A DNA stretch of 64,000 nucleotides from a virus (lineage: Duplodnaviria > Caudoviricetes). The position numbers and the translations under genes were made by a program. The DNA is taken from positions 128,001-192,000 of IMG/VR virus record IMGVR_UViG_3300029305_004606. One strand, 5' to 3'. A model generated the notes under the pieces. It ran no database searches and was not told where the DNA came from. It worked only from the letters and a program-made list of their open reading frames with translations. The number at the start of each line of letters is the position of its first letter. The first letter of the stretch is position 1. Of this stretch, positions 999 to 35,114 are shown piece after piece.

Positions 999-3900
999 TT
1001 ATACTGTAGTATCATCCCAAGGAATTCCCATGATATCTTTTACAGAACGATCGAGTTCGATCATAAGTTTCTGTAAGCTACCATATATAAATGTACTTGT
1101 AACAAGTCGTTTAGAGATAGATGAATCACCTACAAAAGCATCAATCTTTTCATTAGGTCTAAACTCAGTGTAAGGTTCCTGACCGATAGGGAAGATATTT
1201 TTCTCTACAGCTTTATTTGCTGAGTTATAAACAATCTTATCACCTACACCAACAGTATCAAGATATTCTACATAGAATTCAATCAATACTGCTTCTTGTG
1301 CTCTCTTAAGTTTACCTGTAGGAGGCAAAGCATAATGAGCAGGAACCTTAGACATTGAAAGTCCATTATCTTTGATAATCTTTGCTCTTTTCTTTATAGG
1401 TCTTTCATAGTCTTCAACGATTTTTCTTAATGATTCAGACATATCATCATATTCGATGGTTCTAAACATCTTGATATCAACAAGAGTACCAGTAACTTCA
1501 GATTTAAGTTTTCTTTTTCCAATATCTGAAATATCACCATCAGTTAAAGCATCCATTAATTCTGATGCATCTTCATCATCAACTGCAGTTTCCCACATGA
1601 GAATTGTATCTGAAGCTTCAACATGATCACCTATTTTTCCAATACTGAATACTTTGGAATCTTTATCCACAACAGCAGCGAATTTAACGATAATTCTGGT
1701 AGCAAGTTTCTTCGCCATAGAATCAGATATAATACCTGAATCTTCAAATCCTTCATCAGTATTAAGAATAGCAATCTTAGCAAGTTTTCCAATGTTATAA
1801 GCTAGATTGTTTGATTCACCTAACTTATTAGAGAAACTATACTTGTCATAAGCAAGAATACAATCCTTTTTAAACTTCAAGTTAACTTTAGCTCCATCCA
1901 TAGCATCTAACTTAAGAGGAACAAAGTATCCACCATCAGAGTTCTTTTCAGTAGTTTCAGAAAGATTAATATAATCTTTAGTACCATCTATATACTCTAC
2001 AAGCATATATTCATCCTGCACATATTCTTTGATAATACCATCTTTCTTAGCTTTAAAAGCAAATTTATCTGTAGTCATATAAGGCATAACTTCATCAGAA
2101 CCATTAGTAACTAACAGAGGATCAGAATCTTCTGTTCTAACCATATGTTTAGAAGTCTGAATAAATGACATAGCAGTTCTCATAGGATCATCATGTGTTG
2201 ATCCGAAAGGAATCATTGCTTCTGTAGCAGTTAAAGTATTAGCATCATTCATATTTTCTTTTTTAGATTGCTTTACATAACCTTCTGCAGTTATATTAGC
2301 ATTCATTGTAGACTGTCTTGTAATACCAACATTACCAGCAAAACCTGTAGACATACCTAATACATTTAACATGGAATCATTGTAAGAACGTTTGTCAAGA
2401 GAGTAAGCTCTATCTGCATTCATACCAGAAGGACCCTTAGTTGTAATAGAATTAGTTGTTTCTACATCTCTCAGAGCATTAATACATGAATCATCAGATG
2501 TAATAGTATCTGATAAGAAAGCATCTATAACAGCAGATTGTTTTACTGAAAAACTAGCAAATTTCATTGCATGTTTTAACTGGTTAGAATATACAGCATA
2601 AGCATCTGCCAATGCTTTATAAGCATATACAGAAATTAACTGGTATCTTCTCAATCTTCTTGAAGAAGTATCAGTGTGCTTGATATACTTGTTATCGTTC
2701 AACATAGAATTTCCGTATAACAAAATATCAATAAAGTTTGTAGGAAGATTGTAATACTCAAGAGATTCTTTAATCATAGGATCTACAAACAGGTTATAGA
2801 AGTTATCCAAACCATCAAGTTTCATTCTTCCGCCATAATCATCCATGAATTCTGTATACATACCCTTATTATTAATCTCATTAATATTATACATCTCTGT
2901 ATTACATACCTTGAGACCGTTCATAAGTAAACCAGTTTCATAATTCAAATCATAGACAATATATCCATCATTAAATTCAATCCAGTCTTTGTTTACATCA
3001 TTCTTAATTTCTTTAGAAAGATCTTTTACAATTTCATAGTTGATACCGGCTCTCTTCATTACAGGTTCCAGACCAATATAATAAGCACAAATCAAAATAA
3101 GAGGAATCTTTTCACTCATAATAGAAGCTCTAGAATAAGCAGATACTCTAGGTCTAGTTTGAACATCAAATAACTTTTTAAATTCTTCGTCTACTTTGAA
3201 AATATTTAAACAAAGCATATTGACGAATGTATCAACAATATCAGGAGGGAAATATTCAACAGCATCAAGTTTCTTATTATAAGCAAATGGGAAACCTTTT
3301 CCTGATTCTACTTTATATTTCTTTCTTAATTCATCCTGATTGAAATATACAATCCAATCCTCAGTTTCAATTCTACTAAGAGATCCAGCCAAATCGATAT
3401 AATCTACAGGCAAGTTATACTTAGCACAAACTTTTGTATTATTACCAGTAATAAACTTAATCTTTCTACCAGTATATTTCTTAGCAGCTTTTAATAACTT
3501 AGATACAGCAGGTAATGTTCTACCGGCAGAATCATTAAATCTATATAAGAAAATCTTATTATAGTTAGAAATCAACTGACAAGTTCCCAAATCTGTCTTA
3601 ATAATAGGCATATTAAAGAACTGTGTTTGAATAGACTTACTGTTACCACGAAGTAAGAATCTATTATCTTCCATAATAGGAATATCTAACTTGATTCTAT
3701 ATCTCTTTCCTCTATAGTCTTCCATATCCACATCATAAGTCATAACTCTATCTTCTGAAGTAGAAGTATCTTCGACTTTAAGATCTCTAACAACAATAGG
3801 TCTAGTACAGTTGTTGAAGAAACGGAAAATATTAATAATATCTTTATCAATATTATAATTCTTATCGAAATTAATATATGATAAATCCTTCCATTCTTCT

Positions 3901-6110
3901 TTATTCGGAGATGCTACATCAACTGTAGTTTTTTCTTCTTTCTTATCAGATTCATCTTCAAGGATTTCTTTAACAGTTTTACCTTTTACAGATTTATCTA
4001 ATAATTTTTTATCTAGTTCTGACATTCTAGAAGATCTAGCAGCAGAAATATTAACTTCATCATCAGTACCAAGATCAGCAAGAATTCTCTTAATCTCATC
4101 CTGATCTAATTTGTCCATAGCATCCTCTTCATCCTCTGCTGTTTCGGAAGCATCAGCTACAGCTTGAGCTAATCTTTCAAGTTCTTTTGCTTTTCTAACA
4201 TCTTCTGCTTCTTCTTCTGTTGTATCTTCAATTTCATCATCAGCAATTATATTCTGCTTATTGATTGTTTGTGTTACTTTCTGAGAAGACAGGCTATCAG
4301 ATTGACCAGTCATAGAATTCTTTCTATTTTTCTTGAGCTCATTAGCTTTTTTGATAGAATCCTTATCATCACCAACACACTGTTTCTTAATTTCAATAGC
4401 ATTAGCTACCTTAGCAGTTAAGTCAATACCTTTAACATTTTCGATCTTATCAACAAGTTTTGCAGAGATAACTTCAGGATCTTCTTTCACATCTGCAGAT
4501 GTATCTACATCTTCATCACTAAATTCTTCATTCATACAAATCTTTGTAACAAAGAGTCTCAATTTTACAGAAAGTTTCTTGATTTCTTTGGCATCAATTT
4601 CTGAGAAATTGATCTTAAAGTACTCATTATCTCCAACAAAGATAATATTAAGTTTACCAAAGGTATTCTTAAGCTGTGTTACTGCATTCGTAAACATAAG
4701 CTGATATATACAAGAAATAGGATTTAAAGACTGCTTATAATTCCACACAGATCCATTTCTTAACTTATCCCAATCTTTTACAGGAATAAAGATAGTTTTT
4801 GTATTATATCCACTTTTCTTAAGATTAGGATGATTAATTAATCTTTCTACAAAGTCAAGATAAAGATTAAATCCTTTCTTCAAAGTCCATGTATTATTCT
4901 GAAAGAATACTGAATTATAATAATACAAATCAACAAATATATTCTTTTTCTGGTATTTCTCAATCTCAGGAAAAGCATATTGAATAAAAGGATTATCTTT
5001 CTTTACAGTATCAAGAAGCATTAAAACATCTTTTCTATATCTTAATCTGGAAGAATATAATATTCTCTTCATTTGAGAATTATTATTTGTAGCCTCATTG
5101 ACAAACATAATTTTGTCTCCAGTATTAAGAGTACTTTCATGAATATATTTCATGAAATCTTCTGTCTTCATAGTTTCCTGTTCAGTAAAAGGAACTACAC
5201 CAAAGAACTTAGCACAATCTTTCTTAGTACATAAGAAAACAGGTTCACCTTTAATAAATACTCCAACTTTATTTCCACATACAGGACAAATTTCTGGTAC
5301 TTCTTCACCCTTATCGTTCTTTCTTTCAAGAATATAATCTACAGCTTCTGTAGATTCTGCAATATATTTCTTTAGATTTGTTTCTAAAGATCCTTTATTA
5401 GAAAAATATTCTTCAGGTGTAGGTACATCATCAGGAGTTTCTTCTTCTTTATTTGCAAGATTTCTTCCTCTCATAGCAAAAATAGTTTCTCTTGCCCTAT
5501 CTTCAGAAATAGTACCATTTTGCCACATAGAATATATTAAATCAAGCTGTCCATACATAGTATGATACTTAGGTATACCATCTATAGATTCCTTAATAAA
5601 ATCTTTGTAATATTGGAAGAAACGATTTCTTTCAGAATATTTAATATCATCAATACCAAATTTTTTAATAGCACTAATAATATTTTCAGCTAATTCTTCT
5701 TCGTGTTCAGAATCCACATAATTGAAAAATTTGATAGCAGATCTTACATGTTTCTCTGTATCTAAAGGATACTTTCTCAAACTAGGAATACCAAAATCTT
5801 CATCTTTCAAATCAGATCTCTTAGTTTCTAAGCAAGATTGCAATTCAATCTGTTCCTGAATAATAGAAGATTCTTCTACCTCTTCAATATGTTTCTTATC
5901 GATATAATATGATACATCTTTCTCAAGATAATATCCAGAAAATCTTCTACTATTTACAAACAACTCACTGTTCATCAACTTTCTAGAAGACTCATAGTTA
6001 GGAGTCATCAACAGAATAGCAGACCCCTTTTTCTTATCTCCATTTACAGTTGGTAAGAAAGTTTTCGTTCGATAGATTTTAAAATTTTTCATCTTATCAA
6101 TGAAAATCAT
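999..6110 (-). CDS. rpoB: Phage multisubunit RNA polymerase beta-like subunit, probably the virion RNAP, with an ~800-aa N-terminal extension
   Basis: RpoB-like motifs appear in the expected order: DIPIMEDNRFLLRG, HDDPMRTAMSFIQTSKH (cf. HDDANRALMGANMQRQ), EGFEDSGIIS (cf. YNFEDAI.IS), VGDKIV (cf. GDKM), ISKRL (cf. PSRM). The terminal GQR.GEME region is absent, as expected for phiKZ-type split enzymes. A late-type promoter lies upstream. Confidence 0.9.
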   Translation of the reverse strand: MIFIDKMKNFKIYRTKTFLPTVNGDKKKGSAILLMTPNYESSRKLMNSELFVNSRRFSGYYLEKDVSYYIDKKHIEEVEESSIIQEQIELQSCLETKRSDLKDEDFGIPSLRKYPLDTEKHVRSAIKFFNYVDSEHEEELAENIISAIKKFGIDDIKYSERNRFFQYYKDFIKESIDGIPKYHTMYGQLDLIYSMWQNGTISEDRARETIFAMRGRNLANKEEETPDDVPTPEEYFSNKGSLETNLKKYIAESTEAVDYILERKNDKGEEVPEICPVCGNKVGVFIKGEPVFLCTKKDCAKFFGVVPFTEQETMKTEDFMKYIHESTLNTGDKIMFVNEATNNNSQMKRILYSSRLRYRKDVLMLLDTVKKDNPFIQYAFPEIEKYQKKNIFVDLYYYNSVFFQNNTWTLKKGFNLYLDFVERLINHPNLKKSGYNTKTIFIPVKDWDKLRNGSVWNYKQSLNPISCIYQLMFTNAVTQLKNTFGKLNIIFVGDNEYFKINFSEIDAKEIKKLSVKLRLFVTKICMNEEFSDEDVDTSADVKEDPEVISAKLVDKIENVKGIDLTAKVANAIEIKKQCVGDDKDSIKKANELKKNRKNSMTGQSDSLSSQKVTQTINKQNIIADDEIEDTTEEEAEDVRKAKELERLAQAVADASETAEDEEDAMDKLDQDEIKRILADLGTDDEVNISAARSSRMSELDKKLLDKSVKGKTVKEILEDESDKKEEKTTVDVASPNKEEWKDLSYINFDKNYNIDKDIINIFRFFNNCTRPIVVRDLKVEDTSTSEDRVMTYDVDMEDYRGKRYRIKLDIPIMEDNRFLLRGNSKSIQTQFFNMPIIKTDLGTCQLISNYNKIFLYRFNDSAGRTLPAVSKLLKAAKKYTGRKIKFITGNNTKVCAKYNLPVDYIDLAGSLSRIETEDWIVYFNQDELRKKYKVESGKGFPFAYNKKLDAVEYFPPDIVDTFVNMLCLNIFKVDEEFKKLFDVQTRPRVSAYSRASIMSEKIPLILICAYYIGLEPVMKRAGINYEIVKDLSKEIKNDVNKDWIEFNDGYIVYDLNYETGLLMNGLKVCNTEMYNINEINNKGMYTEFMDDYGGRMKLDGLDNFYNLFVDPMIKESLEYYNLPTNFIDILLYGNSMLNDNKYIKHTDTSSRRLRRYQLISVYAYKALADAYAVYSNQLKHAMKFASFSVKQSAVIDAFLSDTITSDDSCINALRDVETTNSITTKGPSGMNADRAYSLDKRSYNDSMLNVLGMSTGFAGNVGITRQSTMNANITAEGYVKQSKKENMNDANTLTATEAMIPFGSTHDDPMRTAMSFIQTSKHMVRTEDSDPLLVTNGSDEVMPYMTTDKFAFKAKKDGIIKEYVQDEYMLVEYIDGTKDYINLSETTEKNSDGGYFVPLKLDAMDGAKVNLKFKKDCILAYDKYSFSNKLGESNNLAYNIGKLAKIAILNTDEGFEDSGIISDSMAKKLATRIIVKFAAVVDKDSKVFSIGKIGDHVEASDTILMWETAVDDEDASELMDALTDGDISDIGKRKLKSEVTGTLVDIKMFRTIEYDDMSESLRKIVEDYERPIKKRAKIIKDNGLSMSKVPAHYALPPTGKLKRAQEAVLIEFYVEYLDTVGVGDKIVYNSANKAVEKNIFPIGQEPYTEFRPNEKIDAFVGDSSISKRLVTSTFIYGSLQKLMIELDRSVKDIMGIPWDDTTV

Positions 6111-8046: not shown

Positions 8047-8098
8047 ATACCGAATAACTTTGTTTATTAAAAAAATAAATAGGAAAGGGGATAGTAAC

Positions 8099-11000
8099 AT
8101 GACTGATGCTGAAAGAATACAATTTATAGAGCAGATAGCTGTTTTTGTACAAAAACATGCACCAACTTATGGTATATTAGTACATTCTCCTATTATTGCT
8201 CAGGCATGTTTAGAATCCGCATATGGTACCTCTAATAAAGCTCAATATCATAATTATTTTGGATTAAAATATAGAGGTGATAGAGTAACTTGTGCTAGTG
8301 GATATTTTTCTGATACAAGTTCAGAACAAAATGCTGATGGTAGTTATATTACTATTACTACTGATTGGTATAAATTTGATAATATGGATTCTGGTGTTGA
8401 AGGTTATTTCCAGTTTACTAATATAGCAAATTATGATAATCTTAAAGGTGTAACAGATCCTAGAACATATCTTGAAAATATTAAAGCAGATGGATATGCT
8501 ACATCTATTAATTATGTAGATAACGTAATGGCTGTTATAGATAAATGGGACCTTACAAAATATGATAGTCCTATTGAACAAAGAGGAATAAAAGTAGCTA
8601 TTGATGCAGGACATGGATCTAATACTGCTGGAAAAAGACATCCGGATGGATATCGTGAACATTGGTCTGATACTTATATGGCTTTCTATTTGAATCAGAT
8701 TCTTGTAAAGAACGGATTTGAAACATTCAAAACTTCTTGGGATGATGACAATCCCACAGATGATGAAGATATAGAATTAGCTATAAGACAGGCACAGATT
8801 AAAGCATTTGGAGCAGATATTTCTGTATCTATTCATGCCAATGCATATGGAGATGGAGCTAGTTACAATAGTGCTGAAGGTGTATCTACACATTATCATT
8901 CTAATACATCGAGAGTTGGAGATTCAGTAGCTTTAGCTACAGCTATTCAGAATGAATTAATTAAAAATACTACTCAGAAAAACAGAGGTATTGTAGCTCA
9001 AGAATTAGCAATGTGTAACTGTGTTGCTATGGGAACACAAGCATCTGTATTAATGGAAACTGCTTTTATGACTAACTCTAGAGAATCTGCTTTATTACAA
9101 AGCGATGAATTCTGTGTAGAATGTGCTAGAGAAATTGCCCAAGGTATTTTCAATTATTTTGGTATTACAGATGCTGATGCTAATGTTTATGTAGTAGCAG
9201 CTGATAGAAGTCATACTGATGAAGATGATAAAGATATTATAAATGCTACTGTTACTTTAGATAATCCTGTAGTTGAATATTATGGAAATATAAATTGTCC
9301 TGCTCCTACAGTTGTATATGATGGAACAACATTATCTATCAATGTAGATTATACAGTTCAATATTCCAATAATATTAATGCTGGTATTGGTATTGTTACT
9401 ATTACTGGTATTGGAAAGTATACTGGAACGAAAAATGTAGAATTTACTATTAAAGCTAGAGATATTGGAACAGCTTCTTGGGTATACAGTACAGATGCTG
9501 ATAATTGTATCAATATTGATCAATTAGGTTTAACTTGTATTGGTATGACTCTTGTAAAAAATACAGATTATACGTTGGAAGTTAGTTACAAAGATCATGA
9601 AGGTTATAAATTAGCAATCTGTAATGCTTATGGTAAAGGAAATTACTATGGCTCTATCAATGGTGGATTCTTTGTTGAAAAATATCCAGAAGATCCTAAG
9701 ATTGATATCAATAGTATAAGTTTTAGTATAGACCAAAACGACTTTATTTATGATGGTAATGTACATAAACCCGAAGTATCAAATACAGGTGGACTGATTG
9801 TAAATACTGATTATACAGTAACTTATAATGGTACATTTATAGATGCTGGAAATTATAAAGTTATAGTAACAGGTATAAATTCTTATGAGGGTACTATAAC
9901 ATTTTCTGTTACAATACATAGAAAAGAAATTTCTAAAAATAATTTTACTATTAGTCAAAATTATTTCATATATGATGGTTCTATGCATAAACCTGATGTG
10001 ACAAATAATATCGGATTAATTGCAAATAATGATTATACTGTTTCTTATAATGGTGCATTTATTAATGCAGGAGAATATACAGTTGATATTGTAGGTGTAA
10101 ATAATTATATTGGATCTATATCATTTCCTGTAACAATAGACAGAAAAGAAATTTCCAAAGATGATTTTAATGTAGCATCGAATTTAACATACAATGGATC
10201 TGTACAAAAACCTATTGTAAAAAGCTTGAAAGGTTACAGTATAAATACAGATTACAATGTAGAATATATAGGCGATTTTATCAATGTAGGACAATATACA
10301 GTTAATATTACTGGTATTGGAAACTATATTGGAAGTGTAACTTATTCTGTTACTATAAATAGAAAAGATATTAACAATATATCATTTACTATATCTGATA
10401 ATATTTATAATGGATCGCAACAAACTCCTATAATTACTACATCAGAAAAAATAGTTGAAGGACAGGATTATTCTGTTGTATATATTGGAGACATGATAAA
10501 TGTTGGTACATATGATATTATTATATCTGGTATTAATAATTATACAGGAAATGTCAATACTGTAGCAAAAATTGTTCCCAAATCGATAACTTATGACGAT
10601 TTCGATATTTATCCTAAGACGTTTATTTATAATGGAGATAGTAAAGATGTAAGTATTTCATCTTCATTACGCTTGGGAAATGATTATACAGTATCTACTG
10701 AAGAAGATATGGTATCTGTTGGACCCAAAACACTTACATTCCAAGGTATTGGAAATTACACTGGAACTATAACAGATTCTATAGAAATACTACCTTGTAA
10801 TATAGATTCTATATATTTTACAGTAGAACCAGATAGTGCTGTTTATTATGGTGGAACATTATATCCTATTATAAGTTGCGGAAATGGTTTAATAGAAGGA
10901 ACTGATTATAAAGTTTCTTATAAAGGTAAATTTATAGAAGTTGGTAATTATCAGACTATTATTACTGGTATTGGAAATTATACTGGTGAACGAAGTTTTG

Positions 11001-12598
11001 ATATGGTTATTACAAAAAGAGAATTGTCTACTGTAACTATTGATATTGAAACAGATAGTAAAGGATTTTATATAATTGATACTCTTAGATTATATACAGA
11101 AACTGAAGAATTGGTAGCTGGAGAAGATTATAGTTTGACTATCAGTTATACAAACAACTTTGCTACATCTTACAAAGAAGCTACAATTAAAATTACTGGT
11201 ATTAATAATTATAACGGAACAATAACCAAGGTGTATAATGTTTCTGATATTGAATATATAGATATCAATGATTGTATCATTATGGTAAATATTCCTGGTA
11301 CTATATATTATTCTGGTTTTGCTAATAGACCTGAAGTTACTGTTAAATATGGTAATAAATTGCTAACTGAAAATATAGAATATAAAGTTGAATATAAAGA
11401 TAATATCAATGCTGGTAATGCCAAAGTAACTATCTCTGGTATAGGTCTTTATGTAAATTCAAAAACTGAAATTTTTATTATTCAGAGACAAAATATAACC
11501 AATAGAGTGATAACTATAGAACAAACAAGTTATTATTTTACTGGAAAAGATATTACTCCTGCAGTGCAAGTAGAAGGACTAAAGCAAGGATCAGATTATA
11601 CTGTAACTTACAAAGACAATAAATATCCTGGAACTGCTAAAATTATAGTTAATGGTACAAATAACTATATTGGTACTTTAGAGACAGAATTTACTATCGA
11701 AGGTGAAAATATATCTGATTGTATTGCAGAATATGGTACCCCTTCAAAGTATACTGAATATAGAGTAGAAGGTGCTTTTAATCTATATGCTGATTTAGAA
11801 TCATATCAAGCTAAAGAAGCTTTGATAGTAGGAATTGATTATATTATTGCACATGAATCTAGAACAGAATATAGCGAATATACTTTGGTTGGTATTCTTG
11901 TAGAAGGATGTAATCTATATACTGGACAGCATAGATATAGTTTCAGAGTTATAGACAAAGATGAACCTCCAAGAGATATACCTGATGATGATAACGGTGT
12001 ATATAATTTTGGATATCTTAATATACCTGGTTCTGAAACTGCTGTTGGAGATTATGATTTTGGATGTCTTGATTGTGGAATTGATCCAGAAACTGTTGTT
12101 ATAGACGAAAAAGATTATGATTTCAATATTCTTTGTGGAGATGGTCAATATGGTATTAGTCCTGGTGATATTTTTACATTGAAAAATACTTCTATTTATA
12201 CAACTTGTAATGCTGAAGAGGTAGCGTTTAAATGTAATAAAACTATCTATATTTATGACAATATTATTGTTAATGGTAGAGTTAGAGTTGCTCGTATTGA
12301 AGATGCTGTAGATTCTCCTGCTAGAGTATTTGGATGGGTTGTAATAGATGATATTAAGAAACTTAATATTCTTCCTATTGGTGAAAAAGTTATTGTTACC
12401 GGAAAAATCTATGAAAATCCTGATGGTACTGGAAGCTATATTGAAAAGAGTGAAGCAACTATGTATATATCTGGACATGTTAATGGTATAGAAGAAAACA
12501 AATTTCAATACCCTTATATTGTATCTACTACTAAAACAAGTAGAATGCTTGGATATGTATCCAGATTATCAATAGTACAATACTCTGACACATTCTAA
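8099..12598 (+). CDS. Multidomain peptidoglycan hydrolase: GH73 glucosaminidase + Amidase_3 + about ten Ig-like repeats + C-terminal SH3-like region
   Basis: GH73 motifs IIAQACLESAYG, HNYFGLK, GYATS. Amidase_3 motifs IDAGHG, SIHANA, LMETAF. Repeated DYTVxY...NAGxYxVxITGIGNYxG units. RBS GAAAGGGG before ATG 8099. Confidence 0.9.
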   Translation: MTDAERIQFIEQIAVFVQKHAPTYGILVHSPIIAQACLESAYGTSNKAQYHNYFGLKYRGDRVTCASGYFSDTSSEQNADGSYITITTDWYKFDNMDSGVEGYFQFTNIANYDNLKGVTDPRTYLENIKADGYATSINYVDNVMAVIDKWDLTKYDSPIEQRGIKVAIDAGHGSNTAGKRHPDGYREHWSDTYMAFYLNQILVKNGFETFKTSWDDDNPTDDEDIELAIRQAQIKAFGADISVSIHANAYGDGASYNSAEGVSTHYHSNTSRVGDSVALATAIQNELIKNTTQKNRGIVAQELAMCNCVAMGTQASVLMETAFMTNSRESALLQSDEFCVECAREIAQGIFNYFGITDADANVYVVAADRSHTDEDDKDIINATVTLDNPVVEYYGNINCPAPTVVYDGTTLSINVDYTVQYSNNINAGIGIVTITGIGKYTGTKNVEFTIKARDIGTASWVYSTDADNCINIDQLGLTCIGMTLVKNTDYTLEVSYKDHEGYKLAICNAYGKGNYYGSINGGFFVEKYPEDPKIDINSISFSIDQNDFIYDGNVHKPEVSNTGGLIVNTDYTVTYNGTFIDAGNYKVIVTGINSYEGTITFSVTIHRKEISKNNFTISQNYFIYDGSMHKPDVTNNIGLIANNDYTVSYNGAFINAGEYTVDIVGVNNYIGSISFPVTIDRKEISKDDFNVASNLTYNGSVQKPIVKSLKGYSINTDYNVEYIGDFINVGQYTVNITGIGNYIGSVTYSVTINRKDINNISFTISDNIYNGSQQTPIITTSEKIVEGQDYSVVYIGDMINVGTYDIIISGINNYTGNVNTVAKIVPKSITYDDFDIYPKTFIYNGDSKDVSISSSLRLGNDYTVSTEEDMVSVGPKTLTFQGIGNYTGTITDSIEILPCNIDSIYFTVEPDSAVYYGGTLYPIISCGNGLIEGTDYKVSYKGKFIEVGNYQTIITGIGNYTGERSFDMVITKRELSTVTIDIETDSKGFYIIDTLRLYTETEELVAGEDYSLTISYTNNFATSYKEATIKITGINNYNGTITKVYNVSDIEYIDINDCIIMVNIPGTIYYSGFANRPEVTVKYGNKLLTENIEYKVEYKDNINAGNAKVTISGIGLYVNSKTEIFIIQRQNITNRVITIEQTSYYFTGKDITPAVQVEGLKQGSDYTVTYKDNKYPGTAKIIVNGTNNYIGTLETEFTIEGENISDCIAEYGTPSKYTEYRVEGAFNLYADLESYQAKEALIVGIDYIIAHESRTEYSEYTLVGILVEGCNLYTGQHRYSFRVIDKDEPPRDIPDDDNGVYNFGYLNIPGSETAVGDYDFGCLDCGIDPETVVIDEKDYDFNILCGDGQYGISPGDIFTLKNTSIYTTCNAEEVAFKCNKTIYIYDNIIVNGRVRVARIEDAVDSPARVFGWVVIDDIKKLNILPIGEKVIVTGKIYENPDGTGSYIEKSEATMYISGHVNGIEENKFQYPYIVSTTKTSRMLGYVSRLSIVQYSDTF

Positions 12599-12692: not shown

Positions 12693-15600
12693 ATGGCTAC
12701 AACTAATTCAAAGTCAAAAACTTATCTCAAAAATGTGGGAAAATCTTTTGGTTATGCTGCTATGGATGTATTCGAGCATTATAATCCTACCCTCACAAAT
12801 TTGTATAAGAGTAGTAAAGATGCTGTAACTGAAGCTAAACGTCTCTCTAGAGAAGCAAAGATGCAATTGCAGCAGGCTGAAGTTGACTCAGATAAGGGTG
12901 GTATGTCCTATATATTGGAAGATCTTGCTAGTGGTAAATGGTATAATAAAGAACGTCAAACTGAAGATGAAAGATACCTTAGCACGATCGCTAAAGAAGA
13001 AGATTGGGGAGATGACACTACGGCTTCTGCTGTAGCAGATACTGCCAGGGATGTAATGAAGCAAAACGAAGCAAGTACCAGAAAAATTTCTGATTCACTT
13101 GGTGGAGCTGCTCAGAGCATTTCAACATCTATTGGATATGCATCTGCACAATCTGCAGATTACATAGTGAAATCTTTTGGTGCTCAATCTAGAGCATTAT
13201 ATGGTCTTACAGCTAACGGGTTTGATAGAGTAACAAATGTGTTACTTAGTATAAATAATAGTATTGATGGGATTGCTAGTATGGGTGAAGGATTAAATGC
13301 TCATATGAAGAACTCTTCTATTTTTTATATTAATGCTACGCAGAGTTTGAATAGAATTGATACTAATATTGAAAAACTTGTTAAGATGCAGGAAGCTGCT
13401 AATAGATCTCCTAGAGGTATTAGTAGAAAAAATGTAAAAGGTATGGAAAACCTTATTGATTCTGATGGTAATATTGATCTTGTTGCTTACATGAAAATGG
13501 TAAAAGACAATATGGATCAGTATAAGACATTAGCTGAAGCTTTAAAAGATAAAAAGGAAGATTGGATCGGTAATAGAAAAGGTGGAAACATGCTTTCCAA
13601 TACTGTTGTTTCTGTTGTAGATGCAATGATTCCTAAAATGACTAAAGAAGCTATGAAGATAATGAACGAAACTCTCAGAGATGGTTTGATTGCCGGATTA
13701 GCCCGAGGTGGTATGAAAGCTAGAAGAAGTAACAATCCTGTTGCTAATCTTTTAGGCGAAATGTTCTTACCCAAGGATGGTTACAAGGATAAGCTTGATA
13801 CTTCCAATTATGAAAAAGGTCAGGTTGCTTGGGATGGTATTGCTAGAAAATCTTTAGTGGAAGTTATCCCTACATATTTGGCTAAAATTTACGCTGCTTT
13901 AGGTGGTGAAGAAAAGTACTTTGATTACGAAACAGGAAAGTTTGTAAAACTTGAACAAATAAAAGCTGATCATGAATATGACAAGAGAGTATCTGCTGTT
14001 AGAGCTGGAGGAAAAATGAGAACTGATATCCTTGCAGATATCAGGAAGAATGCACCGGCTCAAAGACAAGCTCAGTTAGAAAATGAAGTTGAAAGTTTCT
14101 TTTTACAAGCTTTTGTTGATGGATATGATTTTGTAGAAATTGCTCATATGATAAATGATGCTAATTTTAGAAGAAAGTATGGTATTACCAGAGAATCTGC
14201 TAAATATATCATTGATTATGTTGGAGCAAAAGATGCTACAAAAGCAAGAAGAGCTACAGGATTTGTAGCAGGTGTTGCTAGAGGAAGAAATGAATTTGGT
14301 AATACTATGAGAAGAAGAGAAGCTGCAGGTACATCTAATCTTGTATATGCTTCACATGGATTTGATGGAGGTCCTGCTGGAAATGCTATCAATCAATTTG
14401 CAACAATGACAGATAGTTTCGGCAAGACTCAGGCTTATTATCTTCGTGGTATTTATATGATGACTGGTAATATCTACGGAGCACTTCAGGGACAAGTTGG
14501 AGGTTCTTATAGAGTAAGACCTGATAGAAGAGCAACTGCTTCTACCTACTTTAATCCTGATACTGGTAGATATTCTAGAAGAAGACCTAGAATGACTGGT
14601 GGAGAAAGATCTAATATGGATAATCGCCAGCAAAGACAGGCTGCTTCTACAACAACTAGAAATCGTAATATAAGTATTGAAGATAGAGCAAAATATTATG
14701 GAATGTCAGATGATCAGATTCTTGAAGCAAAGAGAAGAGAAGAAATGGTCAAGAGAGCTCAACAGGCTTTTAATGGTCAGGAATTCACTCCTATTCAGGG
14801 AACAAGTGAAGATGGTCAGCCTAGAGTTAGATCAAGATTTGGTTCAGCTCTTGCTAAAGTAAAAGATTGGTATCAAGCTCCATTTGCTGCTATGACAGAT
14901 ATGATCAATAGCTTTACTCTCGGAATAAACAACATGTTCTGGGGAACAAAAGAGCGAAAAGGTCTTATTGATAAAATTTCTGATTATATGAAATCTCTTT
15001 GGACAAAAGTCTTTGGAGATGAAAATGGTCAGGGTGGAATTGGTATGCAGGCTGCCATGAAAGAAGAGTGGACAAAAATTAAGACTAAGGTTAAAGATAA
15101 AGCTCGAAATTTCATGGGTAATGTTGGTGCTAGAGACCGTGCTGCTGGACAAAGAGAAATTGCTCAAGCAGTGGCAAATCAATTTTCAGGTACTCAAGAA
15201 GTACCTGCTCATGCCCGGGGTCGTAGAATAACGAAGACTGGTCTTATTGCTGTATCTGAAGGTGAATTAGTAATTCCTTCCGAATTTAATCCATATTATC
15301 ATGGTAGAACTAACAAGAGACAGCAGATTAGAAATGAGCAGAGAATAATCAATAAATTCTATGGTGGATTTGCTACAGGTGGTACTGTCGGTGGAGCGTA
15401 TACTGATGGACAATTTGTAGAAGATGTAGATCCAATTACAGGAGAAAAAATATACAAATTTGTTAAACCTGATGGAACTGTAATTAGACTTAAGAAATCC
15501 GAATATGCCAAAAGATTAGCACAATGGAAGATTAAGCAAACTACTCAGGCTATTGATGATAATACTGGGGCAATTACAGCTGCAAAAGATGGTGTAAATC

Positions 15601-18600
15601 TTTTAGGTTCAGGATTAATGGATTTCATTAAAGCTTCTTTATTTGGTACTGATAAACAGCAGGAAGAAGATAAGAAGAAGATTAATATGAAAATGACTGA
15701 TATCTTTAAAGAGATGGGTCATGAAAAAGGAGCTATGGGTATTGGAGCTATCGGCGGACTTGGTGTATCTTTGTTAACTGGTGCTGTTGTGGGTCCTTTA
15801 GCTGGTGCTGCTTTAGGTGCTGGTGTTGGATTATTAGCAAAATCTGAAAAAGTTCAGAAGATGCTCTTTGGTGAAGTTGATGAAAATGGTAATTATGAAA
15901 AAGAATTTGGAAACTTTGTAATGAAGAAACTTCCTAATATTGGTGTAACTGCTGGACTTGGTTTGGCAGGTGGAGCTCTATTAGGATCTCCAATTATTGG
16001 ATTAATTGCTGGTTCTGCTATTGGATTTGCTGGACAATCTGATGCTGTTAAAGATAGACTGTTTGGTAAACTTGATGAAAATGGTGAAAGAAGTAAGGGT
16101 GGTTTAATTAATAAGGAACTGCGTGACAAAATTAAGAAAGCTGCTCCCAATATTGCTGCTGGCGGAATTGCTGGTTTATTAGTTGGACCTTTTGGTTTAG
16201 CTGGCAATTTGATTGTTGGTTCTGCCATTGGATATTTGTCAACTGGAGAAAAATTCCATCAGTATTTCTTTGGTGATGGAAAAGATGACAAAGGTCTTGC
16301 AGGAATTATTCATGAAAAGATTATTAAAGGTCTTGATGATTTAATTCATAATACTGGAAATGCTCTTAAAGGATGGATGAGAAAGACTGGAGCTAAAGTT
16401 GGTAGTAAAATTATGAGCTTTATTAGTAAAGCTCAGAATAAATATGAAACCGGTAAAGCTTCTGGATTAACTAAAGCTATAGGTTGGGCTGCAAGTGTGC
16501 CAGGTAAAGCTCTTAAAGGTGCAACTAATAAAGTTGGAGACCTTGTACAGGGATTAGCTGGTCATAGAAGAGCTAGAAACTTAGCTGAAGGTTATGATGT
16601 TTGGAATGCTGAAGCTGGTAGAAATGCTACTGCTGCTGAAAGATTAGGAATGAGATCTGATGATGATATTTCATCTGCAGCAAATATGGATAGAGCTATT
16701 GCTGGAGCAGACGCTGAACAACTTGCTCAGCTTAAGAATATGCTTACTGACCTTAGAGATCCTAAACTTGCTTTCCAAAAAGTAAAGGACAAATCTACAG
16801 CTACATTGTATTCTGAATTAATGGATGCAGGTATTACAGATAAGAAGCTTATTAAGAAAATTATCAAAGAAGCTGGATCCACAAATAGTACGATTAGATT
16901 GGAAGATTTGATAACAGGATATTCTGAAGATCAACAGAAAGCTATTAGAAAAGCATTTAATAAATCTGATAAAGAAATACAGGCAGCTAAAGATACTAAA
17001 ACTGTTACTAAAGGTAATCTTGCATTACTTAAAGATAAGTTTGGTATTAACTTAGAGGGAAGTTCTAATGCTGATATTGTAAATTATTTGAAAGCTATCG
17101 AGCATGATGAAAAAATACGATTCGGTGAAGATGGATCAGATTTAAATGCTAAAGAAGAAAAATATCAGGATAATGTAGTAACATTGTTAACTGATATGAA
17201 TAATAATATCTCTTTATTTACTGAATATATTACAGGTAAGCGTAATGCTGCAGGTAGATTTGATGGTAATATTGACAAAGAAGGTAATGCTCATTTCTGG
17301 GTACATGGTGACAGAGCAGTATCTGCTGAAGAAGCTATTGCTGGAGCAAGAGGTCAGAGAGATATTATGGAATTTGGTAGAGATACCAAGAATGCTATTG
17401 CCGAAACAACTACAAAAGTTATTGATACTGTAACTGAACCTATTAAAGATGCAGTTGTAGGTACATTTGACTTTGTAAAAGAAAAAGTTGTTACTCCTTT
17501 GTCTGATACTGTAAAAGCTGTAGCTCATACTGCTCAAGATTTATATGGTATCGGTATAAGAGGATTTAATGCTGCAAATCCTGATATTGATACTAGCAAT
17601 TATTATGGACCTACATCTGGAATTGATGTTGTAAATACTGCTCAGAGAACAGCTACAAGAGCTAGTTATCTTGGAGGAAGACTCAAGAGAGGAGCAGGTG
17701 ATGTAATAAAAGCTATTAGAGGCAAAGCTGAAGGTGGCACTATTTCTGGAGATAATACTTTCTTAGATATGCTTGCTGATAAAGTAATCGAAAAAGTTGG
17801 TGGAATCGGAGATTATCTCAAAGGTAAAATGGAATCTGCCAAAGAAAAAATCACTACACATGTTGATGCTTTTGGTAACGTTCATAAGATGACTACTAAT
17901 AATCAGGGCGAAACTGTAGCTGCTACAAATGATTCTACAACAAAGAAATCTAAAGCTGCTATGGATAAGTTTATGAATTCTGTAAACTCTATTCCTGGTA
18001 TGGCTACTGCTATGTCCGGACTATCAAGTATGTTTGGTGGTTTAAAAGACAAACTTCTTGGTGGAGATGAAGAAAAAGGACCTGGATTACTAGAACAACT
18101 TGTAAATGGTTTATTTGATGATACAGACGGATTTATTCCAAATATAATTAATCTTATAACCGGTGGTCAAGGTGGTGGTAAATTTGGTGGTATTACTTTA
18201 AAAAGTATATTTACAAATTTAATTGGACCTGGATTATTAGCAGCTGGATTTGCAGGAGTTTTTGATAATGCTTTTAAGGCTGCAACTGGTGGTGCTTATG
18301 GTAAAAAAGATAATGAAGAGTATTACGATAAAGAAACTGGTCAAGTTGTACAAAAAACTGCTGATGGACAATATACTGATGCTAATGGTAATATTGTATC
18401 TGGAAATATAGGTGTTAGACAGAACGATGTTGCTAGTTTTAGTGACAAATTGAAAGAAAATACAGCTAGAGGTGTTTTAACAAATACTTCTTCTGTTGCA
18501 AGTAAAGTTCTTGGAAATACTAATATTGGAAAGACTATAAGTGCTGCTGGTAGAACAGTTGTTAAAGCTGTTGGTGGAGATGCTGCTGCTATGGCAAGTA

Positions 18601-21600
18601 TTACAGATACTATATTAGATGCTTGTATTAAATTTACAAGTATGCTTGGCAAAATTCCTGCATTAAAAGGTATTGCTGGTAAGATTGATGATATGGGTCT
18701 CGAACTTGCTGAAAAGATTTCAACTAAACTTGCATCATCTGGAGCAAAATCATTACTTAGTAATGCTGCTAATTTTGTTGTATGGGCTAAAATTGCATTT
18801 ATTGTAGTAGACTTTACAACAGGTTATGAGGATGCTAGAACTACACTTGGTATTATAGATGAACCTACAGTTCCTCAGAAAATTATTGCAGGTTTATTAC
18901 GTGCATTAAAGAATTTAATTCCTGTAGTTGGTTCGTTAATTCCTGATAGTTTAGTAATAGATGTATTCTGTAAGTATATTGCTCCATTCTTTGGTATTGA
19001 ACCTGAAGGTTTAATGAAACAGAGAGAAGAAGCAGAAGCAAAAGTTGCAGAGTATAATGCTGCTAACGGTACAAACTATTCTGTAGGTGAGTATAATAAG
19101 GCTGTATTGCATGATTATACTTGGACAGAAAGAATCGGAAATGCTGCAAAATCTACTGTAAACGATGTTAAAGATAAATGGAATGCTGGTGTAACTGCTA
19201 TTAAAGAAAAAGGTTTAGGAGGAGCTATCAAAGATGGAATCTCTAATAACGTTGATATCTTTAAAGAAGCATTCAAAGGTAAAGATGGAGGTCTTGCTGG
19301 AGTTACTTCTGGTATAGGTGCTGTATTAGGAAATCTTTTACCTGGTGTCTTTGGAGAAGTTGCACAAAAGAACACTGAAATTCAAGCTCTTGCTTATAAG
19401 GGTGAGATTGGTGAAATGTGGAAAGTTGCTTTAAGTGACTTCAGTAAAGGTAGTGATGAGGAAGCAAATGTTGGTATATTTAGTAAAATTATCGGACAGA
19501 TTCCTTTATTATTTACCAAGATTAATATGACACCTTTAGCTTTAATCAATAAGGTTATTAGACCTATTATGGATAAAGCTGGAGATGCTTTTAAGGGTAT
19601 CATCGAAGGTGGAAAATATATTGCTACTCTTCCTGCTACTGTAGCTGCTGACACTAAAGCACTTGTATACAGTAAAGAAGATACAGATTTGAAGGATTTC
19701 TTCAATGTATCTAAGTATGAACAGCAAGGTGAAAATGGTTTCTATAATGGTATTATTAAGGCGGTCGCAATGACTAGCCGTGTAGCAAGTTTAGGAACTA
19801 TGATAGTTGGTGCTGTAGGTAAGAGAATTGGAAAAGCTTTTGTTGAAATTAAGGATAAAGTAGTAAACATGGGCAAGGCATTTATTAGCCTTGATACAGG
19901 TATTACAAGGAAAGCGTTAGAAGGTGACGTATCTAACATGTTCTCCTATGTATCTTCTTCTACTTCAGAAGATGCCAATAATCCTCTTGGATTTATTGGT
20001 AAAGTATATGGATATACTACTGCAGCCTTAAGAACTCCTCTTGCTTTAGTTTCTAAGGCAGGTAAAGCTATTGGTAAATTCTTAGTTGAAACAAAAGATA
20101 AAGTTATTACCATGGGTCAAGCTTTTGTAGCATTAGACTCTGGTATCACTAGAAATGCTTTAGCAGGTGATATTGGTGGTATGTTTAACCATGTATCTTC
20201 TTCTACTTCAGAGGATGCCAATAATCCTCTTGGATTCGTTGGTAAGGTGTATGGCTATGTAAATGCTGCTATGAAAACTCCTCTTGCTTTAGTTTCTAAG
20301 GCAGGTAAAGCTATTGGTGGATGGTTGACAAGTGTCAAAGATAAAGTAGTTACTGCTTTCTCTACTATGGCTACGATGGATCAAAGTATTACTGCAAAAG
20401 CTACAGCAGGTGATATAACTGGAATGTTTGACTATGTAGCTGGAGCTACATCAGAAGATGCCGAAAATCCTCTTGGATTTGTAGGTAAAGTATACGGTTA
20501 TGTAAACGCTGCTGGTAAAGTTCCTCTTGCTTTATTATCTAAAGCAGGTCAAGCTATCGGTGGATGGTTTGGTGAAAAAGTAGATGCGTTTAAGACAGAC
20601 GTTGGAACATTAGATTCTGCAAAAGAAGCTCTCAAGGGTATGAGTCAAGATAAATCTAGTTCTATTGGAGATATCATGGGCTATACAACAGAGTTTAGTG
20701 ATAATAATGTATTCAAGGGAATTTTTAACGCTATTTTCGGATTCCAAAAGATTTTCTATAGTGCTGCTAAACTTCTCGGAAATGTATTTGATGCAATCAG
20801 TGGAGTTGTAGATGGTATTAAAGATAAAGTCGGTGGAGTTGTAGATGCTGTTACTGAGAAAGTGTCTGGTGTTAAAGATGCTGTAGTTGAGAAAGTAGAA
20901 GATGTAAAAGAAGGAGCTAAGAAAGTTGTTAATAATGTTAAAGAAGGTGCCAAGAAAGCAGGAGAAACTGTCAAAGGATGGGGAGAAGCTGCTTGGGATG
21001 GTTTAACAGGATGGATAACTGGATCTGGTTCTGGATTTGTTTCTCAATATGATCCTAGATATCAGAATTATAAAGTATCTGGACAGAACTTTGCTGCTAA
21101 GGGTTGCGGTCCTGCTGTAGCTGCTATGGCTGGTAGAGCTCTTGGTAAGAATATTTCTGTTAATGATGCTGTAAATGGTTCTATTGGATATCAGAATGGT
21201 AACGGTGTATCTATTGATTACTTCCAGCAAATGCTTGGTTCTAAGGGAATCAATACTAGATATATTAGTGGTGGTTCTTCTGCTGATTTATATAACTCTA
21301 TTGCTAGTGGTGAGAAGGTTGTATTACTTGGTAGAGATCCTTATAATACTTCTAAAGAATATTCTCCTTTTGGACCTAACAATCATTATGTATTAGCTAC
21401 TGGTATCGATAGAAGAGGAAATGTTATTATTAACGATCCCGAAGCTAGAGGACCTAGAGCTTATAATCCTGCTATTTTGAATTCTGCTAAGTTTGGTGTA
21501 GCTGGTTCTAATAGTGGAATTGGAAGAAGAAGTTCTATTAGAAGATCCTCTAAAGTAAGAAATATTTTCTCAGGCGGATCTTCATATGATACAGAAATTG

Positions 21601-33470: not shown

Positions 33471-35114
33471 ATGATTTTAAACGAATATAATCAGATTGTC
33501 AATGAACACTTTGACTTATCTGACAATTATACTCGTCGATTCATTGCTAGTCTTAACGAAAGTGGACAGGAGCAGCTTATCGCTGCTCTTTCTTCTGCTT
33601 TATATGAAAAGATTGTAGCAAAAGTTGACGAAATCGATTTTGGTACTATCCCTCAGTCTAGAGGTGATATTACAAAGGTTCAAGGATTTGTAAATACTGA
33701 GCAGTGTATTGATATTATTAGAAAGCTGGTTATTCAGTATAATCAGAAGACTGATATTATTGATTCTATTATTACTGCTATTAGTAATATCAAAGACAGA
33801 AAGAATCTGTTCACAAAGGCATTTGCTATTAAAGCAGATATGCCTGTTATGATCTACAATTTGATGGTATTAGCTGTTGAGAGATCTGTATCTCTTATTA
33901 TTGCTACCTGTATTCAGTTTGTTAAGGACCCTCAGTCTTCAAATGTAAAGACAGCCCTTGATAAAGTTGCATATGAGAAAACAATGGATGATATGCTTTT
34001 CAAGCAGCTTATTACTTTCAATGCATTATGTAAGACCGGTACAATGGATAAGACCCTCAACAGTTCTATGAAATCGAATACTGTTCATGAAGAAGTAGAT
34101 ATTGTAGGATCTGTTCTTGGTAGAGAAGATAATGGTGAGATTGGAAGTGGAGAAGAAAAAACTCCTGAAGTAAATGCATTTGCTCCGGATAACACTGCAT
34201 CTATCTTTGGTGATTCTGAAGCTGAGCCTGTTGCTACTCCTGAAGATGATAACAAAGATGATGAAAAATTCGATGTATATAATCCGGCTAACAAACCTGA
34301 AATCAATCCTGCTACTCCTCCTGTTTCTATTGAAGAACCTGAAGGATCTAAGGTTACTTTTGATGATAATGGAATTGATAAGGAAAAAGATTATCAGGGA
34401 CTTCCTGGTACTTTGGTAGCAAGAATGGCTAAAATTATTATTCCTGGAAAACCTGAAGAACCTAAGCCGGAAGAAGTTGAATCTCCTAATGATGGAGTAG
34501 AACCTGAAAATATTCCTGCAGTTACTCATGATGATGAAGATCCGTCTGTAATGGACGAACCTATTACTGAAGATGAACTCCAGGAAGGTGTATTAGGTGA
34601 TTTGACCAATACTACAAGAGGAAAAATTGTTGATGCAGTTAGATCTTACAGTGGAGCTGATAAGAACGATAATACTATGACTGTTATTGGCAAGACTCTT
34701 AAAACTCTTGGTCAGAGAAATAAGAAAATCTTTGCAGTAGGTGGAATTATTGCAGGTGTAATTGCACTTCCTTTTGCAGTTGTAAAGATTATTATTCCTT
34801 TTATCAGAGGATGCGTATATTACTTCTATTATACTAAGATGAAAGTATCTGATTATCTTGAGATTCAGGCTGAGCTTATTGAAGCTAATGCTAATGATCT
34901 TGAGAATTCTACCGATTCTGAATTAACAGAAGAAAAGAAAGCTAAAGTTGCTGAAAGACAGCGTAAGTGGGCTGACAGACTTCGTAAGTGGGCTAATGCT
35001 TTTGCTATCGATCATAAACAGGCAACTAATGCTGCTAAGAAAGAGGCTGACAAAGACTCAAAAGAGAAGAAAACTGTTCGTAAGGATGAAGATGGAGACG
35101 ACAGTATCTTCTAG
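33471..35114 (+). CDS. Putative virion protein with a P/E/D-rich insert and a hydrophobic C-terminal helix
   Basis: GGGAGG RBS; same operon as 31932; TM-like IFAVGGIIAGVIALPFAVVKIIIPFI. Confidence 0.75.
   Translation: MILNEYNQIVNEHFDLSDNYTRRFIASLNESGQEQLIAALSSALYEKIVAKVDEIDFGTIPQSRGDITKVQGFVNTEQCIDIIRKLVIQYNQKTDIIDSIITAISNIKDRKNLFTKAFAIKADMPVMIYNLMVLAVERSVSLIIATCIQFVKDPQSSNVKTALDKVAYEKTMDDMLFKQLITFNALCKTGTMDKTLNSSMKSNTVHEEVDIVGSVLGREDNGEIGSGEEKTPEVNAFAPDNTASIFGDSEAEPVATPEDDNKDDEKFDVYNPANKPEINPATPPVSIEEPEGSKVTFDDNGIDKEKDYQGLPGTLVARMAKIIIPGKPEEPKPEEVESPNDGVEPENIPAVTHDDEDPSVMDEPITEDELQEGVLGDLTNTTRGKIVDAVRSYSGADKNDNTMTVIGKTLKTLGQRNKKIFAVGGIIAGVIALPFAVVKIIIPFIRGCVYYFYYTKMKVSDYLEIQAELIEANANDLENSTDSELTEEKKAKVAERQRKWADRLRKWANAFAIDHKQATNAAKKEADKDSKEKKTVRKDEDGDDSIF

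Follow-up and report, generated by a model that had tools for sequence, protein, structure and literature searches.

A fast-changing array of domain cassettes, joined at candidate prohead-protease sites, in a predicted virion RNA polymerase subunit of uncultured jumbo phages

In the 64,000-nucleotide stretch of DNA analysed here (the window; positions 128,001 to 192,000 of the IMG/VR virus record IMGVR_UViG_3300029305_004606), the open reading frame (ORF) at 999 to 6110 on the reverse strand encodes a protein of 1703 amino acids (aa). Judging from sequence comparisons, this protein is the N-terminal beta (beta-N) subunit of the virion's RNA polymerase (vRNAP) in an uncultured AR9-like jumbo phage. 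Its N-terminal region holds three small domains, or cassettes, and among its homologs the same slot is filled by many different combinations of modules. We consider this modular, fast-changing array to be almost certainly real. Candidate sites for a prohead protease lie at the junctions. Our best explanation, which we place somewhat on the probable side, is that the gene encodes a polyprotein-like precursor from which the cassettes would be cut free by that protease.

The assignment to the virion polymerase is based on two kinds of searches. A PHROG search matched residues 482 to 1693 to phrog_3148 ("RNA polymerase beta subunit", E = 5e-136), and tblastn against 50,697 phage records matched annotated RNA polymerase beta subunits in 299 of them. 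All of these relatives are distant (23–32% identity), and the matches are confined to residues ~764 to 1694. They include the beta subunits of AR9/PBS1, Staphylococcus jumbo phages, Listeria phage LPJP1, phiR1-37, Fusobacterium phages, and phiKZ-like phages. The sole match in AR9 is BI022_gp188, which is annotated as a virion RNA polymerase subunit (beta, N-terminal part). In the same search, the non-virion beta genes of AR9 did not match our protein, and it is for these two reasons that we identify it as the beta-N subunit of the virion enzyme. The contig (200,990 bp, ~30% GC) has further RNA polymerase subunit genes elsewhere, and the window around the gene contains virion structural genes, a chaperonin, and more polymerase pieces.

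Anatomy and turnover of the N-terminal region

A first-pass annotation, made by a model from the sequence alone, had proposed that three small domains are stacked in residues ~80 to 340. We located all three there: window positions 5090 to 5870 correspond to residues ~81 to 340, and the two strings it had quoted lie at residues 97 to 131 (KRSDLKDEDFGIPSLRKYPLDTEKHVRSAIKFFNY, in a DUF6582 module) and at residues 275 to 299 (CPVCG...LCTKKDC, in a zinc ribbon), with a helical unit in between. Rather than a simple N-terminal stack, the array is more aptly seen as an insertion that separates a conserved leader of ~80 aa from the conserved N-domain of the beta-N subunit.

The leader (residues 1–77, window 5880–6110; all parts of the gene are on the reverse strand) is beta-rich and is the best-conserved portion of the N-terminus. 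It is present in 119 of the 120 homologs described below and is modelled with a predicted local distance difference test (pLDDT) score of 85–96. We regard it as a candidate capsid-targeting or docking domain. Cassette 1 (residues 82–171, window 5598–5867) is the DUF6582 module. Pfam's PF20223 matches residues 102 to 152 with a score of 27.6 bits, just above the gathering threshold of 27.3; the family is also precomputed on most of the homologs, and 114 of the 120 have it. An alignment of the module with stand-alone members of the family reveals several invariant positions (G, K, P, A, F, E, L, N, and Y). Cassette 2 (residues 176–249, window 5364–5585) is a helical unit of ~75 aa (pLDDT 89–96) that is found in 27 of 120 homologs. 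Cassette 3 (residues 254–322, window 5145–5351), found in 37 of 120, is a four-cysteine zinc ribbon. Its cysteine pairs are CPVC at 275–278 and C294/C299, and zinc-ribbon families from Pfam match residues 268 to 300 weakly. We did not find paralogs of the cassettes elsewhere in the genome.

The array is followed by the N-domain (residues 341–560, window 4431–5090; pLDDT above 90), which in a Foldseek search of BFVD hits N-terminal portions of vRNAP beta subunits from PBS1 and other jumbo phages and which aligns to residues 79 to 218 of AR9 gp188 in a family profile. Next come a linker that is acidic and of low complexity by composition (residues 561–760, window 3831–4430), which contains no candidate cleavage site, and the RNA polymerase beta-like body (residues 761–1703, window 999–3830), to which the tblastn matches to virion beta proteins belong.

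In an AlphaFold2 model of residues 1 to 560 (mean pLDDT 83), there are five confident units: residues 1–70, 101–170, 187–250, 261–320, and 341–560. This 560-aa model had no match in PDB, and its only matches in BFVD were to polymerase N-domains. Modelled alone (pLDDT 86), DUF6582 is a beta-hairpin with three helices. No convincing fold relative of it was found in PDB (best Foldseek E = 3.8, best VIA Z = 4.7), and its matches in the ESM Atlas were to unnamed viral clusters only. Overall, searches of Pfam, the ESM Atlas, and known folds did not identify an enzymatic function for any cassette of the 1703-aa protein.

To obtain homologs, we searched metagenomic proteins with residues 1 to 760 only. 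This gave 168 homologs of 1449–2968 aa, and we mapped 120 of them on the query. The map has three zones: a conserved leader (residues 1 to ~82), a variable zone of 117–1611 aa, and a conserved body that runs from residue ~310–330 to the end. Using a small library of representative modules, we counted at least 26 architectures between leader and body among the 120 homologs, so the modules are gained and lost as units and are not fixed in all homologs. At the simple end of the range is the leader alone. Others add DUF6582, then the helical unit, a zinc ribbon, or a double zinc ribbon, and still others add enzyme-type modules in varying order; in one homolog, for example, a NUDIX domain precedes DUF6582. 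Inserts in the homologs (up to ~1400 aa) include NUDIX, GNAT, HAD, P-loop kinase-like, and DUF362 domains and an unnamed unit of 145 aa. Several unrelated effector-type domains can thus share one polypeptide of variable architecture, as is typical of polyvalent proteins. Each of the 16 homologs with a NUDIX domain has retained an intact NUDIX box. A Pfam scan of the 1703-aa protein and of four large homologs found no peptidase domain.

To estimate how often the modules change, we built a tree with FastTree from the last 900 aa, which lie outside of the variable zone (one truncated homolog was omitted). On this tree, the presence of the zinc ribbon changes 13 times, NUDIX and the helical unit 9 times each, and DUF6582 6 times. 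For complete architectures, the tree requires no fewer than 45 changes.

The modules also occur apart from this arrangement. Stand-alone DUF6582 proteins of 86–104 aa are encoded in contigs of 150–270 kb, and DUF6582 is also fused to other partners. A group of proteins of ~570 aa has the order reversed (zinc ribbon, then DUF6582), with candidate sites on both flanks. In smaller phage proteins (P0193, P0215, P0237, and P0240), DUF6582 is often followed directly by a short DUF7211 motif (HHGILGQKWG...), which makes DUF6582-DUF7211 a recurrent pair of domains without an assigned function. In one lineage, a complete 723-aa gene on a 143-kb ENA contig (P0169, L013:7001–9172) consists of the leader, DUF6582, and the N-domain, and stops at about the position of the acidic linker. 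No polymerase body is adjacent to it. Since this gene stands alone, the cassette-bearing N-terminal unit is separable from the body of the enzyme. Among IMG/VR records we found only two related contigs, both of which are partial.

Candidate cleavage sites at the junctions

According to the first-pass annotation, the modules are bordered by eight motifs with a hydrophobic residue, any residue, and Glu. All eight exist. Five of them fit a stricter pattern in which Glu (P1) is preceded by a hydrophobic residue at P3 and followed by Ser or Ala at P1', and these five are our candidate sites. Of the other three, IQEQ and ILER do not fit the pattern, and CLET is only moderately conserved.

We describe the five sites from the N-terminus, with an arrow at the predicted cut and with counts from a 66-sequence alignment (A1). 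Site 1 (VEE↓S, residues 78–81, window 5868–5879) separates the leader from DUF6582 and has V, I, or L at P3 in 57 of 66 sequences, Glu at P1 in 48, and Ser at P1' in 38. Site 2 (IKE↓S, residues 172–175, window 5586–5597) is followed by the helical unit. Site 3 (IAE↓S, residues 250–253, window 5352–5363) lies ahead of the zinc ribbon and borders a recurrent family of motif-delimited fragments (see below). Site 4 (IHE↓S, residues 323–326, window 5133–5144) is the least certain of the five, with L or I at P3 in 48 of 66 sequences, Glu at P1 in 43 of 66, and a pLDDT of ~70. Site 5 (VNE↓A, residues 337–340, window 5091–5102) is a candidate maturation site directly ahead of the conserved body. E339 is present in 64 of 66 sequences, P3 is F, L, I, or V in 62, and P1' is Ala in 24, Asp in 23, and Ser in 13. 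Both E174 (site 2) and E339 are at least 90% conserved, in the midst of poorly conserved linkers.

In the AlphaFold2 model, pLDDT falls below 50 only at residues 172–186, 252–259, and 338–340, which are at three of the five sites. Across residues 71–100, which include the first site, it is 55–64. The linkers are thus predicted to be flexible. Such flexibility, together with a small or hydrophobic residue, any residue, and Glu before a small residue, is expected of substrates of prohead proteases of the T4 gp21 and phiKZ gp175 type.

If the motif marks the joints between modules, then it should be found near module boundaries in the homologs as well. Using [ILVFMYT]-x-E-[SAG] as the motif, conserved flanks as anchors, and random windows in the body as controls, we found it within 20 aa past the end of DUF6582 in 82 of 100 homologs (versus 8% of controls), within 20 aa past the leader in 52 of 105 (versus 8%), and within 8 aa ahead of the body in 49 of 82 (versus 2%). 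We also identified the points at which pairwise similarity between homologs breaks off, which are defined independently of the motif. Of these breakpoints, 179 of 373 are within 8 aa of a site, while 72 would be expected. Four decoy motifs (Asp or Lys instead of Glu, a charged P1', or a polar P3) were at or below expectation. Thus, the proposal that modules come and go with boundaries at such motifs held among the 120 homologs.

When we cut the N-terminal regions at the motif, the resulting fragments fell into families that match end to end and recur at differing positions in different proteins. These families include the leader (93 members), DUF6582 (75 members), the zinc ribbon (27 members, which start anywhere from residue 89 to residue 844), and others.

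The sites are also denser in this array than chance would explain. The rest of the protein (1358 aa) has about two strict sites, versus five in the N-terminal array. Across the genome, only 30 of 2279 segments of 270 aa (1.3%), from just 4 of 169 ORFs, have five strict sites. Over whole ORFs of the proteome the enrichment of the motif is weak, so it is distinctive only as a local density. The other three ORFs with at least five strict sites per 270 aa are at window 46978–48636 (forward), genome 27311–28789 (reverse), and genome 192370–194097 (forward), and these are candidates for multiply processed head proteins.

The motif resembles the specificity of known prohead proteases, as the first-pass annotation had noticed. 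The T4 protease gp21 cuts after (I/L)-x-E, and gp245 of SPN3US cuts after A-x-E (PMC5694885, PMC10052503). A closer comparison is available for the AR9 group: according to its record, the mature capsid protein of phiR1-37 begins at Ser87, after the sequence MLQE↓S, and the capsid proteins of AR9, SA1, and LPJP1 align at this cut with ILQE↓S, ILME↓S, and NIME↓S. By sequence, the junction motif in our protein is the same pattern as the mapped maturation site of the phiR1-37 capsid.

Could another protease recognise these sites? A phage M48-like zinc metalloprotease might cut them instead of a prohead serine protease, either before packaging or after ejection. The genome does encode an M48-family peptidase, genes for zincin proteases lie near the head genes of AR9 as well, and polyvalent proteins have been predicted to be processed by metallopeptidases (PMC5512222). 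Nothing ties M48 enzymes to specificity for Glu, however, while prohead proteases of the gp21 type are characterised by cleavage after Glu with a hydrophobic residue at P3, and the mapped site in the phiR1-37 capsid has exactly this pattern. We consider processing by an M48 enzyme to be very improbable. The M48 gene is at genome 121804–123123 (forward strand; L001:11804–13123). The ORF next to it, of 315 aa (genome 123138–124085, forward; L001:13138–14085), contains VSES, ISES, LSES, and FNEA, four x-E-S/A sites that all fall within its N-terminal 86 residues. In AR9, a similar zincin protease is beside the capsid gene.

Six other ORFs in this genome provide independent support for processing by a prohead protease. 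They share a start of the form M-x-[ILV]-[NK]-E-[YNDVH], which is absent from internal positions throughout the proteome, and in each of them this shared leader ends at residue 20–34 in hydrophobic-x-E↓S/A (for example, MTINEYTNSLIKDKRESIKE↓A). Four of the ORFs are on the forward strand (window 33471–35114, 38687–39667, 39745–40449, and 54675–55328) and two are on the reverse strand (window 41331–42152 and genome 6048–6695). Several of them are in the block of head genes and have PHROG matches to virion or internal head proteins. By analogy to T4, the shared leader looks like a capsid-targeting propeptide of internal head proteins.

Processing and fate of the cassettes

We propose that a clade of uncultured jumbo phages has inserted autonomous cassettes between the ~80-aa leader and the N-domain of the polymerase, joined by short flexible linkers that would be recognised, at a hydrophobic residue, any residue, and Glu before Ser or Ala, by a gp21-type protease. 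The whole precursor would go into the prohead with the assembled polymerase, and the leader and the polymerase would bring the array along. The prohead protease would then cut after the Glu of each linker (E80, E174, E252, E325, and E339), which would yield a mature polymerase subunit that begins near A340 and free modules of 8–10 kDa. Being folded and free of internal sites, the modules would, we infer, remain in the head, and they would be ejected together with the DNA and the polymerase.

The idea that the virion polymerase gene acts as a polyprotein was already in the first-pass annotation. In its favour are the findings that the modules are autonomous and turn over, that they are bounded by the motif, that the linkers are predicted to be flexible, and that there is a precedent: in phage 201phi2-1, the prohead protease removes an N-terminal propeptide from the vRNAP beta-N subunit at TFE-275 (Thomas et al. 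2010, as described in PMC5694885). On the other side, we found no prohead protease in the contig. We judge that cleavage at these joints is probable, and more so than the polyprotein explanation as a whole. That functional cargo is delivered to the host is a less secure step, which we would put at rather below even chances.

Several observations weigh against cleavage or delivery. First, the low pLDDT at the junctions may be explained in part by gaps in the alignment there. Second, the homologs are related to each other, so the junction counts are not phylogenetically independent; we give more weight to the specificity for Glu and a small P1' than to these counts. Third, the motif is short, and at the last site, P1' is Asp in one third of the homologs. 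Fourth, the SPN3US ortholog of the subunit (gp241) stays unprocessed, as the phiKZ ortholog (gp178) probably does (PMC5694885). Fifth, another beta piece of AR9, BI022_gp077, carries an HD phosphohydrolase domain; its annotation describes it as proteolysed and places the RNA polymerase domain alone in virions, which implies that a part that is removed may be lost instead of carried; the role of this HD domain is called unknown in reviews (PMC7598289, PMC7824862). Sixth, AR9 gp188 seems to have a leader-like segment (residues 3–53) that leads straight into the N-domain, and neither cassettes nor sites intervene. This match is weak: our leader and the first ~53 residues of gp188 are collinear and the alignment is visually plausible, but the domain score of -1.6 bits is insignificant alone, and we do not rely on it. 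If the match is real, then the leader may be an integral part of the polymerase that cutting would detach. The array would be an insertion into an older unit of leader plus N-domain, and after excision the leader would be held only non-covalently.

Finally, our searches of the 201-kb contig turned up no prohead protease, no major capsid protein, and no clear portal. Pfam models for S77, S78, and ClpP (PF03420, PF04586, and PF00574) had no usable match in the genome, and the PHROG families to which the protease and the capsid protein of AR9 belong (including phrog_3014 and phrog_207) had no match in it. Nor did tblastn with AR9 proteins, including the protease, give a usable match in the contig. 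A custom capsid profile from four phages of the AR9 group had no usable match in all six frames of the contig or in the two related contigs. We also ran hhalign on three candidate ORFs, sequence searches against PDB, and PHROG scans of ~40 ORFs, which turned up no protease or capsid gene. Two candidates were rejected. One apparent protease gene is the M48 metallopeptidase and not a prohead protease, and a 273-aa candidate (phrog_12252) matches hypothetical proteins only. Of the large terminase, only part was seen (genome 15087–15830). The contig may be incomplete despite its end repeats, as relatives reach 236–290 kb, or the protease and capsid genes may be too diverged to detect.

Some of these observations would be expected if the array is never cut. 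The cassettes would then be a tethered accessory array, in the style of polyvalent proteins, that acts beside the polymerase in the newly infected cell (possible targets are RNA 5' ends, nucleotides, or host proteins), and x-E-S/A would be merely a favoured sequence for flexible linkers. Polyvalent proteins, including the vRNAP of N4, are both packaged and delivered in the form of long polypeptides with several domains (PMC5512222), and the unprocessed SPN3US subunit, the apparently contiguous leader and body of the AR9 ortholog, and the lack of a protease in the contig all favour this explanation. On the other hand, a preference for flexible linkers does not fit well with the specificity for Glu at P1 and a small P1' at the breakpoints, given that Asp, Lys, and a charged P1' show no enrichment, or with the conservation of the P1 Glu (at least 90%) in linkers that are otherwise variable. 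Also, the motif is that of the mapped capsid maturation site of the AR9/phiR1-37 group, the same subunit is cleaved in 201phi2-1, and a similar x-E↓S/A closes the shared leader of other head proteins in the genome. Overall, we consider a tethered array to be unlikely.

Alternatively, the cassettes might be cut off and then discarded. The N-terminal 340 aa would be a long propeptide with a role only in assembly, as a targeting or scaffolding element, or in the cell that produces the phage; after cleavage by the prohead protease it would be lost or degraded, so that nothing functional is delivered. In giant phages, propeptides of 111–275 aa are cleaved at more than one position and for the most part cannot be detected in virions (PMC10052503, PMC5694885); the annotation of AR9 gp077, with the RNA polymerase domain alone in virions, points the same way, as does the absence of any recognisable enzymatic function in the cassettes of our protein. 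The homologs, though, carry enzymes whose catalytic motifs are intact (a NUDIX box in all 16 cases) as well as GNAT, HAD, and P-loop modules, which is hard to square with disposable material. Furthermore, the cassettes are modelled as folded units with good confidence and contain no sites of their own, so they would not be reduced to small peptides that escape the shell, and their rapid turnover suggests host-facing selection more than a fixed role in assembly. We consider a discarded propeptide to be improbable, even less likely than an uncleaved array.

If the cassettes are instead released and carried, as we favour, then the beta-N subunit of these gut and rumen jumbo phages could be a fast-evolving platform for loading cargo. 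Recombination would swap cassettes into one slot between a docking leader and the enzyme body, and the small binders and enzymes (such as NUDIX, GNAT, HAD, and kinases) that the protease frees would be co-injected as effectors of host takeover or anti-defence in the first minutes of infection. The cassettes of all relatives taken together would then amount to a catalogue of injected effectors, with DUF6582 being the most common. We offer this broader scenario only tentatively.

Neighbouring genes and relation to known systems

Three other loci in the window are worth describing. A 621-aa protein (45126–46991, forward) combines an endonuclease family (phrog_15137, residues 7–234) with a NUDIX domain (residues ~293–370), which is a type of domain that relatives carry as a polymerase cassette. 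A giant ORF of 3558 aa (12693–23369, forward) adjoins a 1512-aa protein (8060–12598, forward) whose first ~400 aa match endolysin families; these two probably belong to the tail or the injection apparatus and include a domain that degrades the cell wall. A phage GroEL-like chaperonin (phrog_5725, E = 1e-48) is encoded at 57053–58906 (forward).

How giant phages select and load dozens of injected proteins is largely unknown, and very few injected effectors have been identified outside of T4 and P1. If our explanation is correct, then a single, easily recognised gene would provide an index of injected cargo and candidate effectors in uncultured jumbo phages, including enzymes that could act on nucleotide signals, RNA ends, or host proteins at the onset of infection. 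Foreign proteins could then also be loaded into the heads of jumbo phages by way of a defined joint (hydrophobic-x-E↓S/A) and a defined slot, as has been done with the targeting sequence of T4. Regardless of delivery, the array clearly exemplifies a very fast turnover of domains within an essential polymerase gene.

Our literature searches found no description of a hypervariable, protease-jointed cassette array within a subunit of a multisubunit vRNAP, and nothing on DUF6582. Several related phenomena are already known: removal of a propeptide from beta-N, fusion of an enzyme to a vRNAP, the targeting tags of T4, and polyvalent proteins. Close in terms of the protein is 201phi2-1, in which the same subunit loses 275 aa after x-x-Glu (TFE-275), a length comparable to the ~340 aa ending in VNE-339 here. 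That propeptide is not reported to be modular or to bear enzymes, whereas our array consists of changing folded cassettes with a site at each junction, and its cleavage is predicted. In AR9 and PBS1, the nearest cultured group, an enzyme is fused to the N-terminus of a virion polymerase subunit (BI022_gp077; PMC7598289, PMC7824862) and the fusion is annotated as proteolysed. In contrast to the array, the carrier in that case is beta-C and not beta-N, there is a single fixed domain, and the removed domain is reported to be absent from virions.

Close systems in terms of the proposed mechanism are the targeting sequences of T4 and the processing by gp21 of its internal proteins and Alt. These proteins are imported into the prohead, trimmed after (I/L)-x-Glu, retained in the head, and injected, and the motif is of the same class as ours. 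In T4, the tag is 10–20 aa and is found on separate proteins, while here several passengers would sit on one subunit of an essential enzyme. In terms of content, the array resembles the polyvalent proteins of phages and conjugative elements (Iyer et al. 2017, PMC5512222), which are variable strings of effector domains (GNAT, kinases, NUDIX-like, and others) in one packaged polypeptide that turn over quickly and are sometimes fused to a vRNAP. It differs from them in that no embedded peptidase was seen, the carrier is the beta-N subunit of a multisubunit-type RNA polymerase, and the junctions have a motif of the prohead-protease type.

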